IMG/VR virus record: IMGVR_UViG_2724679140_000008
Source of the DNA: a virus
Taxonomy: Duplodnaviria; Heunggongvirae; Uroviricota; Caudoviricetes
DNA: 33,770 nucleotides
Strand: one strand, 5' to 3'
Each line of letters opens with the position of its first letter. Position 1 is the first letter of the stretch. Positions 18,264-33,510 of this stretch are shown piece by piece. The position numbers were made by a program, and so were the translations under genes. The notes under the pieces were generated by a model. That model searched no databases. It was not told the DNA's origin and saw nothing but the letters and a program-made list of their open reading frames with translations.

Positions 18264-18495
18264 TAAGCAAAAAAGCTCCCGAAGGAGCCTTCATTTTCAC
18301 TTTCTTAAATCTAACGACAGATGGCTAACATTTAAGTATTGTGAAATATTATCAAATGTGATCATCATTGATTTACAAAAGATACATTTTGCCCCGAAAG
18401 GATTTCTGTCAGAAACATCAAAAGATGATGTTCTATACTGAGAACCATGGCAACACGGGCATCTAAAGTGAATATGGTTTGTAATATTTTCTACC

Positions 18496-18708
18496 TCAAA
18501 GTGCCACTACATGAACAGCTGCAGGGCCTTTAGGTCCGTTCTCAATACCAAATTCGACTTCCTGATTCTCAGTTAACGTTTTGAAATCGTTGCTCTGAAT
18601 AGCTGAGAAATGCACAAACACATCTTTGCTACCATCTTTCGGCGTGATGAAACCAAAACCTTTTTCAGGGTTAAACCATTTCACTAAACCAGTCATTTTG
18701 TTAGACAT
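18496..18708 (-). CDS. cspI: Cold-shock protein, CspA family (cspI-like)
   Basis: [70 protein letters not shown], with the canonical RNP1/RNP2 cold-shock motifs. A long AT-rich leader lies upstream (18712-19070). Confidence 0.9.
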
Positions 18709-19071
18709 CATTATTACCTTTTGAAGAAGTTAGCCCTTGGGCAGAATGGTCCGAAAAAAAATATCAGAGAGAAAAACCAACAAGGAAATCTCAAGAGGTA
18801 CAAATAATAAAATTATAACAATGACTGCTTCAGATAATTTTGTAACAAACCAGAACACCATTAACGCATGATTAACCAACCATAGCAAGGATTACTTTTG
18901 TAAAGAAAAACACACGAATGAAACAATAGCTTTATTTATTAATAAAACGTGTCATTCTGTCTAATGACCTTTTATCTTACCCTTAAGATTTCAAGGATTT
19001 TGACTCATGGAAGAGTCCTTTTTATTTAAATTTCACATTCAGCGCTAAAAATAATCCGATTTAATATTAAT

Positions 19072-21910: not shown

Positions 21911-22386
21911 AAACAGCGAATCAGATCAAATAAAACGCACATTTGTTAACATTTACACAAAGTCTGCGTGGGATATTCTGAAAGAATATCCATAATGTGG
22001 AGAGAATCTATTGAAGTGCATGGTGCCGGGTGCCTCCCGGTGAATTCAGTACCAGCACCTGAATCCGCGATTATCCCATATACCTACTCGCTGATTGCCC
22101 CTCCGCACAGGGGGATTCACCATGCCAGTTTCTTTTAACAAACTCCCCGCAAACCAGAGAACAGTCAACCGCCTGAATTGTGAAGTATTTAAAAATTTCT
22201 CCCGCTAACTGATACCCGGCTAACAGTCTGGCGTTTTCTTTTTCAGCAACGGGAAAGCAACAACCACCACACCCGCCACCAGCACACTGTCAGCCAGCAC
22301 TGACATTATCCGGCTGCTGCAATGCCATTCACAAAAACAGTAAGCAATCACTTTTTACCGTAACAGGTGATAATCCAGATATGTAT

Positions 22387-22850: not shown

Positions 22851-22927
22851 TGGCGCGCTGTACTGGATTCGAACCAGTGACCGATTGCTTAGAAGGCAAT
22901 TGCTCTGTCCGGCTGAGCTAACAACGC
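22851..22927 (-). tRNA. tRNA-Arg (anticodon UCU)
   Basis: Minus-strand sequence GCGTTGTTAGCTCAGCCGGACAGAGCAATTGCCTTCTAAGCAATCGGTCACTGGTTCGAATCCAGTACAGCGCGCCA: 7-bp acceptor stem, anticodon loop CU-UCU-AA, GGTTCGAATCC T-arm, encoded CCA. Coordinates anchored on the spurious ORF 22762..23049. Confidence 0.9.
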
Positions 22928-22940
22928 TGAATACCGATAA

Positions 22941-23020
22941 TGGACCGCCATCGGGGACCCGCCCCCGCACCAACAACCCTGTTATCGTGTCGTCTGCTCT
23001 TCCTGATAAGCTAATGGCGG
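22941..23020 (-). ncRNA. Degenerate tRNA-like element (pseudo-tRNA)
   Basis: Minus strand CCGCCAT-TA-...-CGGGG-GCGGGT-CCCCG-ATGGCGG-T-CCA: perfect 7-bp acceptor stem, U8/A9, a T-arm-like hairpin, discriminator and CCA, but no canonical anticodon arm or T-loop. Confidence 0.3.
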
Positions 23021-23027
23021 TTTGTGA

Positions 23028-23103
23028 TGGTGGCCCTTGCTGGATTTGAACCAGCGACCTGGCGATTATGAGTCGCTCGCTCTCACCACTGAGCTAAAGG
23101 GCC
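23028..23103 (-). tRNA. tRNA with CAU anticodon (Ile2-like, ileX/ileZ type; Met not excluded)
   Basis: Minus-strand sequence GGCCCTTTAGCTCAGTGGTGAGAGCGAGCGACTCATAATCGCCAGGTCGCTGGTTCAAATCCAGCAAGGGCCACCA, which closely resembles E. coli ileX as I recall it. Confidence 0.88.
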
Positions 23104-23139: not shown

Positions 23140-23166
23140 AATAAAAAACCCGCTCGGCGGCGGGTT
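23140..23166 (-). terminator. Intrinsic terminator downstream of the late promoter (tR'-like)
   Basis: Minus strand AACCCGC-CGCCGA-GCGGGTT followed by TTTTTT, about 60 nt downstream of the candidate promoter. Confidence 0.55.
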
Positions 23167-23206
23167 GTAGAAACTCTTCTAACGTCAGGCATAAAAAGCC
23201 CATCAT

Positions 23207-23246
23207 TATGACGAATTTACCACAGATTCCGGAAAAATCAACCTTG
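23207..23246 (-). promoter_or_regulatory. Candidate late promoter (pR'-like) just downstream of Q
   Basis: Minus strand TTGATT-N17-TAAATT immediately after the Q stop; placement as in lambdoid pR'/qut. Confidence 0.4.
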
Positions 23247-24068
23247 TTACCTAGTTACCTTTTTTAACTGCCGCTCAGCCCATGCTTCTTCAATATCAAA
23301 CCGGGTCACCAGCGCATCATAGAATTTCTTAACTGTTTTTTCCCATGACGCGCGTGTTATCTGGTTTGTCACCTCGCATATAGCATTAAATGCCTCCGTT
23401 GATGGTAGTCTTTCATAGCCACGACCACCACAACGCTGGCAGTCTCTGATAACAGGCATACCACGTTTTACCGACTCTTCACGGTGAATGGCGACACCAC
23501 GCCCACGGCAATCCTTACAGGCGGTGGAAACCTCACCCTTTCCGCCACACTCCGGACAGGCAACTTTTACCACCTCCCTGACTTTTTTCCATTCTTCCCA
23601 GTAAGACGGATACACACCTTTCGTACACTTTGCCCATACCGGCGGCTTACCATCCGGATACTGGACCTTGTTTGTAAAAACTATGCTTTCAATAAATTTT
23701 TCCCCATAGCAACAAGGGCACTGCTTTTTACTCGCTGCGCTGCGGGCATAATCCTCAAAAGCGTACGAAGCCATAATGCGCATCACTACCGGTTTTATTT
23801 CTGCCGGAAGTTTTCTCAACGCCGCCACACGATCGCACCGACTGAGTGCATAATCTGCCAGTAATTCTGTTGCCCGCGCCCTGTCATTCATACTGATGCC
23901 CATTTTCCCCAGGAACGCAGAAAAACCCATCTCAGCCCGATTCTGTGTCATGCCCTGCGCGGCCATCACATCAGTGATACTCAGCGCATCTTTTGACGTT
24001 GAGGCCGATGCATCGGTCAGGCCAGGGGATTTTGGGGAGTAGTATTTCGGTAAATCTTCCAGTTTCAT
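23247..24068 (-). CDS. Late-gene antitermination protein Q
   Basis: 273 aa with Cys-rich zinc-binding clusters (CPCCYGEKF...CPECGGKGE...CKDCRGRG...CQRCGGRG), upstream of a late promoter/terminator pair. Confidence 0.85.
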   Translation of the reverse strand: MKLEDLPKYYSPKSPGLTDASASTSKDALSITDVMAAQGMTQNRAEMGFSAFLGKMGISMNDRARATELLADYALSRCDRVAALRKLPAEIKPVVMRIMASYAFEDYARSAASKKQCPCCYGEKFIESIVFTNKVQYPDGKPPVWAKCTKGVYPSYWEEWKKVREVVKVACPECGGKGEVSTACKDCRGRGVAIHREESVKRGMPVIRDCQRCGGRGYERLPSTEAFNAICEVTNQITRASWEKTVKKFYDALVTRFDIEEAWAERQLKKVTR

Positions 24069-33453: not shown

Positions 33454-33510
33454 TTTCTGGTGACGTTTGGCGGTATCAGTTTTACTCCGTGACTGCTCTG
33501 CCGCCCTTTT
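33454..33510 (+). ncRNA. dicF: DicF small RNA
   Basis: TTTCTGGTGACGTTTGGCGGTATCAGTTTTACTCCGTGACTGCTCTGCCGCCCTTTTT, identical to the E. coli DicF sequence as I recall it, ending in its own terminator hairpin and U-run. Confidence 0.88.

Follow-up and report, generated by a model that had tools for sequence, protein, structure and literature searches.

The tRNA cluster of a lambdoid prophage

A 33,770-nt stretch of viral DNA (IMG/VR record IMGVR_UViG_2724679140_000008; hereafter the window), which is an Escherichia coli lambdoid prophage, carries two intact tRNA genes, of the ileZ and argO types, with an 80-nt tRNA-like element between them. This element, a probable pseudo-tRNA referred to here as type C, is the subject of the present report. 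The cluster lies on the minus strand of the window, as do a Q gene and a terminator (Table 1), and the 481-nt stretch spanning it is a 100% match to E. coli FDAARGOS_497 and phage mEp460_ev081. An earlier inspection of the letters alone (the sequence-only reading) had described two intact tRNAs, with CAU and Arg-UCU anticodons, around an 80-nt unit. Its coordinates and content were right; both tRNAs were called by ARAGORN and scored 72.5 and 68.0 bits with the Rfam tRNA model.

The ileZ sequence is identical, in alignment, to ileZ of the Shiga toxin (Stx) prophage Stx2a_WGPS8. In the identical E. coli locus the NCBI Prokaryotic Genome Annotation Pipeline (PGAP) names the CAU tRNA 'tRNA-Ile', which supports its assignment as tRNA-Ile2, a reader of AUA. 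At other loci, alleles of argO differ by a compensatory swap in the T stem (CACTGG/CCAGTA versus CAGTGG/CCACTA), as expected of a working tRNA. The spacers that set the element apart from its neighbours are short, 7 nt on the ileZ side and 13 nt on the argO side.

Table 1. Positions of the tRNA cluster, of the parts of the 80-nt element and of its relatives. Positions are those of the window unless a locus is named.
Feature	Position	Strand	Remarks
Q-type antitermination protein gene	24068..23247	-	273-aa open reading frame (ORF), directly upstream of the tRNA cluster
Intrinsic terminator, tR'-like	~23166..23140	-	between Q and the tRNAs; 7-bp stem with 5 G-C pairs, then TTTTATT (terminator scan)
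ileZ-type tRNA(CAU)	23103..23028	-	intact; ARAGORN; Rfam tRNA model, 72.5 bits
80-nt pseudo-tRNA (probable), type C	23020..22941	-	argN position, between ileZ and argO; sequence, alignment, fold
Acceptor 5' strand	23020-23014	-	CCGCCAU
U8 A9	23013-23012	-	
D arm	23011-22996	-	GCUU/AUCAGGAA/GAGC
Linker	22995-22988	-	AGACGACA
Replacement hairpin	22987-22971	-	CGAUAAC/AGG/GUUGUUG
GUG	22970-22968	-	
Degenerate T arm	22967-22952	-	CGGGG/GCGGGU/CCCCG
Acceptor 3' strand	22951-22945	-	AUGGCGG
Discriminator	22944	-	U
CCA	22943-22941	-	encoded
argO-type tRNA-Arg(UCU)	22927..22851	-	intact; AGA/AGG reader; ARAGORN; Rfam, 68.0 bits; PGAP 'tRNA-Arg'
Type D	L082 237..314	+	centre AGGCAGCATTGCTGTTGTTATTGTG
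Type D	L254 8738..8815	-	centre AGGCAGCATTGCTGTTGTTATTGTG
Type E	L258 2595..2675	+	E. coli K-12 MG1655, yahL-yahM intergenic; also L158, L179, L183 and ~110 metagenome loci (L298 onward)
Type F	L334 410..487	-	centre AGGCAACCTCAATGTTGTTGATGTA

The 80-nt element is not a canonical tRNA

Written as RNA, the element reads CCGCCAU UA GCUU-AUCAGGAA-GAGC AGACGACA CGAUAAC-AGG-GUUGUUG GUG CGGGG-GCGGGU-CCCCG AUGGCGG U CCA, and its centre includes GACGACACGAUAACAGGGUUGUUGGUG. Much of the top half of a tRNA is in place. A perfect 7-bp acceptor stem is followed by the discriminator U and CCA, and the D arm is intact, with 4 bp, one of them a G.U pair, and GG in its loop. The T-like stem has 5 bp, but it closes a loop of 6 nt that lacks U54-U55-C56, whereas the canonical loop is 7 nt with T54-Psi55-C56-R57-A58. 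No 5-bp anticodon stem with a 7-nt loop bearing U33 and an anticodon can be formed; the options of the central sequence are limited to a stem of 7 bp that closes a 3-nt loop and one of 5-6 bp that closes an 11-nt loop. The former of these appears in the minimum-free-energy fold, a four-arm cloverleaf in which the 7-bp stem and its 3-nt loop stand where the anticodon arm belongs. This fold was not significantly better than those of shuffled sequence (z = -1.3).

The features listed in the sequence-only reading (the 7-bp acceptor stem, U8/A9, a T-like hairpin, the discriminator and CCA) are all present in the sequence. Its statement that the element has no foldable anticodon arm holds for an arm of the canonical 5-bp/7-nt form; it does not hold for the central region as a whole, which folds into the 7-bp/3-nt hairpin.

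Standard detectors passed over the element, in agreement with the earlier view that it is not a canonical tRNA. ARAGORN called the flanking tRNAs alone. The Rfam tRNA model (RF00005), with a gathering threshold of 29 bits that both flanking tRNAs far exceed, gave no match over the element even at E<=10, and PGAP left type C without annotation. Weak Rfam matches to YrlA (E = 1.7 and 0.077) extended over the ileZ T arm and the D arm of the element; they were rejected as generic tRNA-likeness. Three ORFs overlap the element, a plus-strand one of 95 aa and two of 64 and 46 aa on the other strand, and none had a Pfam match. A literature search, whose reach did not extend to older Stx-phage papers, found no description of the pseudo-tRNA or of the element upstream of yahM that is considered below.

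Relation to argN and to the Stx2e 'tRNA-OTHER'

The window cluster was aligned to the three-tRNA clusters of the Stx2a_WGPS8 prophage, in which ileZ, argN and argO are annotated immediately upstream of stx2A, and of E. coli THO-008. The ileZ and argO genes are essentially identical in all three. The 5' ~25 nt and the 3' ~27 nt of the element align to argN; its centre does not. Because both ends align to argN, and do so at the same place between ileZ and argO, the element is not a chance hairpin. The argN position, which had been proposed from the letters, was thus found again by alignment, in the same order downstream of Q, with the UCG anticodon absent.

The element shares with argN (tRNA-Arg UCG of Stx and lambdoid phages) the acceptor stem CCGCCAU/AUGGCGG, U8 A9, the D stem, the T stem, the discriminator U and CCA. 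It differs in having AGACGACACGAUAACAGGGUUGUUGGUG where argN has its anticodon arm and variable loop (GYCAGCCUUCGAAGCUGGYUGYG), a D loop that is 1 nt shorter, and GCGGGU in place of the T-loop UUCGAGU. ARAGORN calls argN as a tRNA, whereas it does not recognize the element.

The replaced centre is not peculiar to the window. An 81-nt feature that PGAP labels 'tRNA-OTHER' in the Stx2e prophage of ETEC6335, referred to here as type B, has a centre identical to that of the element, the same position and the same ends. Type B keeps the canonical T-loop UUCGAGU and a G-C pair in the D stem, both of which the window type C has lost. Type B was not called by ARAGORN or Rfam either. In a published survey, Stx2a/c/d phages carry Met, Arg and Arg tRNA genes, while Stx2e phages carry Met and Arg only (PMC7366253). 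This two-tRNA description of Stx2e phages fits a middle gene that went unrecognized.

These comparisons qualify the earlier description of the element as a degenerated third tRNA. Signs of decay are indeed present, in the loss of T54/Psi55 and a hypervariable T arm beside intact ileZ and argO. The centre, as judged from the alignments, is instead a block replacement that can still form a hairpin, and not the result of erosion by point mutation. The window copy would then be a further-degraded member of a distinct tRNA-like lineage and not a freshly decayed argN.

The middle position of the cluster is lesion-prone

The ileZ-argO interval was catalogued by pattern scans of IMG/VR, which yielded 142 clusters with full flanks from pooled pattern searches and hence a sample that is not fully unbiased. 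Three ARAGORN-callable tRNAs were found in 83 of these clusters, type C in 35 and type B in 12. The remaining clusters had other defects in the middle gene: mismatches in the acceptor or T stem, a frameshift in the D arm, or changed anticodons. On one further viral contig (L297 2113..2145, minus strand) ileZ and argO are separated by a single base, the middle gene and both spacers being cleanly deleted. The middle position of ileZ-argN-argO is therefore lesion-prone in general: ileZ and argO are maintained, whereas the gene between them has been damaged, replaced or deleted time and again.

This record bears on a possible cis-acting role of the element within a polycistronic tRNA precursor, where it could be a processing spacer or a sponge for small RNAs (sRNAs) like the 3' external transcribed spacer 3'ETS-leuZ and the internal transcribed spacers of host tRNA operons. 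The element does lie between two tRNAs of a single probable transcript, and its GU-rich single-stranded and hairpin sequence could in principle pair with C/A-rich RNAs. No target was identified, however, and ileZ and argO are intact in clusters with a canonical argN or a deleted middle gene, so that no special spacer is apparently needed. We regard such a role as very unlikely.

Among complete E. coli genomes, 3071 of 5426 carry the tRNA cluster, in up to 13 copies per genome, and 1781 of 5426 carry a B/C element over at least 80% of its length. The 1812 matching E. coli records divide into 911 that are identical to the window element, 713 at 95-99% and 188 that are more divergent. Variation is pronounced in the T arm. 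The T-loop region of type C occurs as GGGGGC, GGGGGGC, GGGGCC, GGGCTC or with G-runs of 9, 12 or 13, and across E. coli the G-run of the T arm ranges in length from 5 to 13. Further lesions in type C copies are a U8->G change, mismatches in the acceptor strands (GATGACGG, GATAGCGG) and a deletion in the T stem. These were found in IMG/VR contigs and in aligned closed E. coli genomes alike. In the loci where the type C T arm varies, the T-loops of ileZ and argO are invariant.

At type C loci the element had a per-site nucleotide diversity of 0.017, compared with 0.006 in ileZ and 0.008-0.025 in the spacers, in a closely related sample in which the D arm and the hairpin of the element are still well kept. 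The element thus has two attributes of a tRNA pseudogene: it descends from a tRNA gene with loss of decoding features, and its constraint is looser than that of the neighbouring tRNAs, as seen in the hypervariable T arm and in some acceptor mismatches.

One IMG/VR locus (L054) has an otherwise canonical argN, with the UCG arm intact, that carries the aberrant GGCGGGT T-loop of the window together with its downstream spacer. This mosaic points to recombination inside tRNA genes among prophage clusters. With as many as 13 clusters in a genome, recombination among paralogous clusters is plausible, and it can explain both the mosaic forms and the well-kept ends of the element without selection on the element itself.

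A conserved chromosomal relative upstream of yahM

Genome contigs were scanned for the D-arm pattern of the element, TAGCTYATCRGGAAGAGCAG. Other matches to this pattern were mostly unrelated, being ordinary tRNA-Lys(UUU) genes of Acidimicrobiia, and were set aside. Among the matches listed were three Escherichia/Shigella chromosomes with a solitary 81-nt relative, referred to here as type E, which in E. coli K-12 MG1655 lies between yahL and yahM. Its sequence is CCGCCATTAGCTCATCAGGAAGAGCAGACGACAACCAGGATTGTTGTATGGTACGGGGTTCGAGGCCTCGATGGCGGTCCA. Type E is present in 5170 of 5426 complete E. coli genomes.

Type E and the window element have the same acceptor stem, a D arm with an 8-nt loop, A26 G27, U73 and CCA. 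The centre of type E shows clear homology with the centre of types B and C (AGACGACA..CAGG..UUGUUG..GGU), from which it is separated by several insertions and deletions. Type E differs from the window copy in being solitary and chromosomal, in having its own sigma70-like promoter and a canonical T-loop, and in being strongly conserved, whereas the window copy has a defective T-loop and is polymorphic. The minimum-free-energy fold of type E is a clean cloverleaf whose anticodon arm has given way to a stem of 7 bp closing a 6-nt loop. PGAP has no feature here and Rfam gave no match at E<=10; ARAGORN returned an odd call, 'tRNA-Ser (gga) at position 38'. The loop of type E, ACCAGGAUUGU, resembles the CsrA motif obtained by systematic evolution of ligands by exponential enrichment; the resemblance was set aside, GGA being absent from types B, C, D and F.

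A near-consensus promoter (TTGACA-16-CATAAT) is found ~95 nt upstream of type E, and the annotated start codon of yahM is an ATG within the 3' acceptor strand of type E. A Reg-Seq preprint reports an active yahM promoter that is repressed by IHF, and terms yahM "completely uncharacterized" (10.1101/2025.05.13.653802). The leader upstream of type E in K-12 was considered as a decayed ileZ, and thus as the relic of an old phage tRNA cluster, but its local alignment was no better than those of shuffles and the idea was set aside.

Type E is identical to that of K-12 in 93% of matching E. coli records, whereas the 81-nt stretches on either side are so in 57% and 70%. A set of 114 copies, mostly from metagenomes, differed from K-12 by a mean of 0.05 in type E, of whose 81 positions 29 were fixed by the search pattern, and by 1.6 and 1.3 in the two flanks. 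Between K-12 and a divergent Escherichia lineage (L158), type E matches at 81/81 positions, while identity is 87.7% in the leader, 81.5% in the next 81 nt and 85.3% in yahN. The yahM ORF has a stop at codon 12 in this lineage and is frameshifted in Shigella. Because the yahM ORF is broken where type E is kept, the conserved unit at yahL-yahM appears to be the RNA element rather than YahM, and the ORF is probably spurious. Judged by these comparisons, type E would be under strong purifying selection.

A possible family of tRNA-like RNAs

Two further relatives were found. The metagenome scan was dominated by identical E. coli copies of type E and gained a single new variant, type F. Types D and F each lie 2 nt downstream of an ileZ-like sequence too decayed for ARAGORN or Rfam; type D is followed by an intact tRNA-Thr(UGU), and type F retains perfect stems and the T arm of type E beside its decayed ileZ. 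ARAGORN gave 'tRNA-Ser(gct)' for type D and a 2-nt anticodon for type F.

When folded singly, types B, C, D, E and F each form a hairpin of 6-7 bp in the place of the anticodon arm. The loops of these hairpins are wholly different among the relatives (CCAGGA, CUCAAU, UUGC, AGG), yet all retain a stem of 6-7 bp whose 3' strand is GU-rich. The individual folds were not significantly better than those of shuffles (empirical p = 0.04-0.17). With RNAalifold, the central hairpin had no consensus among types E, F, D, B and C, and the number of compensatory pairs was 0. The stem changes in the family are all one-sided transitions opposite the GU-rich strand, and as such they are tolerated by default. 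Structural conservation of the central hairpin in the family is thus suggestive.

The variety of loops bears directly on whether the element could be an unconventional decoding tRNA, for example one whose anticodon loop is enlarged so as to decode by frameshifting or in quadruplets. An alternative register with a 5-6 bp stem (GACGAC/GUUGUU) and an 11-nt loop would provide such a loop, and the odd ARAGORN calls on types E, D and F could be taken in the same sense. The window copy is nevertheless called by no detector, no register gives a 7-nt loop with U33, the T-loop is defective, and the relatives have no loop sequence in common. Of all the readings considered here we hold this one to be the most improbable.

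In common with its relatives, the window element has the acceptor stem, A26, a D arm whose loop is 8 nt long and, where the anticodon arm would be, a GU-rich hairpin; its T-loop departs from theirs, being GCGGGU where types E, F, B and D have UUCGAG. We tentatively propose, as a possibility somewhat short of even, that these sequences represent an undescribed bacterial and phage family of tRNA-like RNAs, made up of a tRNA top half, with acceptor stem, D arm, T arm and U73-CCA, and a plain 6-7 bp hairpin whose loop is free to vary, of which the window copy is a degraded member. The best-kept member would then be the unannotated, promoter-equipped 81-nt type E gene of the E. coli core genome. 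If so, the RNAs of the family would be made by the tRNA-processing machinery and yet be non-decoding, which implies a non-translational role. They might, for instance, regulate an enzyme or nuclease that binds tRNA, or act as its decoy or substrate; alternatively, their processing might act as a switch for the transcript downstream.

RNAs of this general kind exist. The T4 species 1 and 2 RNAs (rnaC, rnaD), the Bacillus cereus pseudo-tRNA 'tRNA-Other', transfer-messenger RNA and the tRNA-like domains of YrlA all share an acceptor/T-arm top half of the tRNA type. The tRNA-processing enzymes act on these RNAs although they do not decode in the ordinary way, and their expression has been demonstrated. 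The T4 RNAs are encoded, moreover, inside a phage tRNA cluster. None of these RNAs is related in sequence to the element, which in contrast to them is known from its sequence alone.

The same comparisons can be read as evidence that the window element is itself functional, as a phage-borne paralogue of the conserved yahL-yahM RNA that is excised by tRNA-processing enzymes. It would act through its acceptor/T/D 'top half' and hairpin, for instance as a decoy, a substrate or the partner of a tRNA-recognizing protein. The centre is homologous to that of type E (AGACGACA...CAGG..TTGTTG..GGT), which is unchanged at 81/81 positions between K-12 and a lineage with flanks of 82-88% identity and is identical in 93% of E. 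coli genomes against 57% and 70% for its flanks. All five types place a 6-7 bp hairpin where the anticodon arm belongs, and the element occurs in one third of E. coli genomes and in the phage record mEp460_ev081. Type C, however, is without the T-loop that types E, F and B have kept. Its T arm varies freely, including by slippage of the G-run, and some copies have acceptor mismatches. The family alignment contains no compensatory covariation, the one-sided stem transitions need no selection to be tolerated, and a clean deletion of the middle gene exists (L297). Function of this kind in the window copy therefore seems unlikely to us, although less so than a decoding or a spacer role.

Origin and fate of the element

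We conclude that the window element is most likely a non-decoding pseudo-tRNA at the argN position, co-transcribed with its neighbours, probably excised, and kept by linkage. Its lineage would have arisen when the anticodon arm and variable loop of the middle tRNA were swapped as a block for a GU-rich hairpin, as in type B of Stx2e/phiP27-type phages. Type C would stand further along the same path, having lost T54/Psi55 and one base of the T-loop and acquired a G.U pair in the D stem.

From the known organization of lambdoid late regions, the element would share the Q-dependent late transcript with ileZ and argO. Its excision, in the manner of a tRNA, would then probably fall to RNase P and the enzymes that trim 3' ends, given the substrate rules of RNase P, because the 7-bp acceptor stem stacked on a 5-bp T stem and the encoded CCA have been kept. 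Having no anticodon loop, the product could not read codons, and with its defective elbow it would probably be unstable and subject to rapid turnover. The element may owe its persistence to its place in the 100 bp that separate two tRNA genes under selection, and to recombination among co-resident clusters, which keeps re-homogenizing its ends. Selection on the element itself would not be required.

Several observations weigh against this conclusion. The acceptor stem, the D arm and the replacement hairpin are well kept in most type C copies, and 911/1812 records are identical. The commonest substitution, G->C in the 5' strand of the hairpin, does not abolish the hairpin but shifts its register and yields a better fold (-7.3 versus -5.2 kcal/mol). 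The centre is homologous to the strongly conserved yahL-yahM element, so that the architecture, to judge from the sequence comparison, can be functional, and type F (L334) has perfect stems beside a badly decayed ileZ. Finally, co-transcription and excision by RNase P are steps that we infer for the element from its context and form.

Other features of the prophage

In E. coli locus L004, which is 100% identical, the Q gene is annotated as 'antitermination protein'; its label in mEp460_ev081 is 'Phage antitermination protein Q'. The tR'-like terminator that follows it would be expected to stop a short promoter-proximal late transcript unless Q modifies RNA polymerase. The region from the end of Q to this terminator (window 23143..23211, minus strand) has a weak match to isrK (Rfam, 18 bits, E = 0.15), an RNA of Salmonella Gifsy-1 that binds Hfq. 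The terminator hairpin is probably what drives this match, and the region probably marks the short promoter-proximal late transcript. A weak Rfam match to Trp_leader at the same terminator region is also terminator-driven.

Downstream of the tRNA cluster by ~700 nt, and on the same strand, there is a strong match to the sRNA family STnc100 (window 21964..22154, minus strand; Rfam, 114 bits). The STnc100 family is also found downstream of the type D cluster (L082 934..1137, plus strand), and it seems to accompany such tRNA clusters regularly in the late region of prophages. Another match, full-length, is to the family that comprises the cspA thermoregulator 5' untranslated region and coding region (window 18450..18866, minus strand; Rfam, 110 bits); it indicates a cold-shock protein gene with an RNA thermosensor on the prophage. 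The antisense sRNA DicF is present in near-perfect form (window 33455..33506, plus strand; Rfam, 76.7 bits), which fits a Qin/Kim-type lambdoid prophage.

Implications

Decayed tRNA genes are already familiar from phage tRNA clusters, and annotation pipelines already half-see type B as "tRNA-OTHER". The practical consequence is one of annotation: about one third of complete E. coli genomes carry an 80-81-nt look-alike of a tRNA gene that pipelines either skip or label "tRNA-OTHER". When the input of lambdoid or Stx-type prophages to host translation is judged, the element should not be counted as a third rare-codon tRNA. The middle gene of ileZ-argN-argO is the dispensable one.

The wider interest lies in what the element is linked to upstream of yahM, a conserved and apparently undescribed tRNA-like gene that has a promoter of its own, and thus in the family rather than in the window copy. 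If it is a real RNA gene, type E would add a new tRNA-like non-coding RNA to the best-studied of all bacteria.

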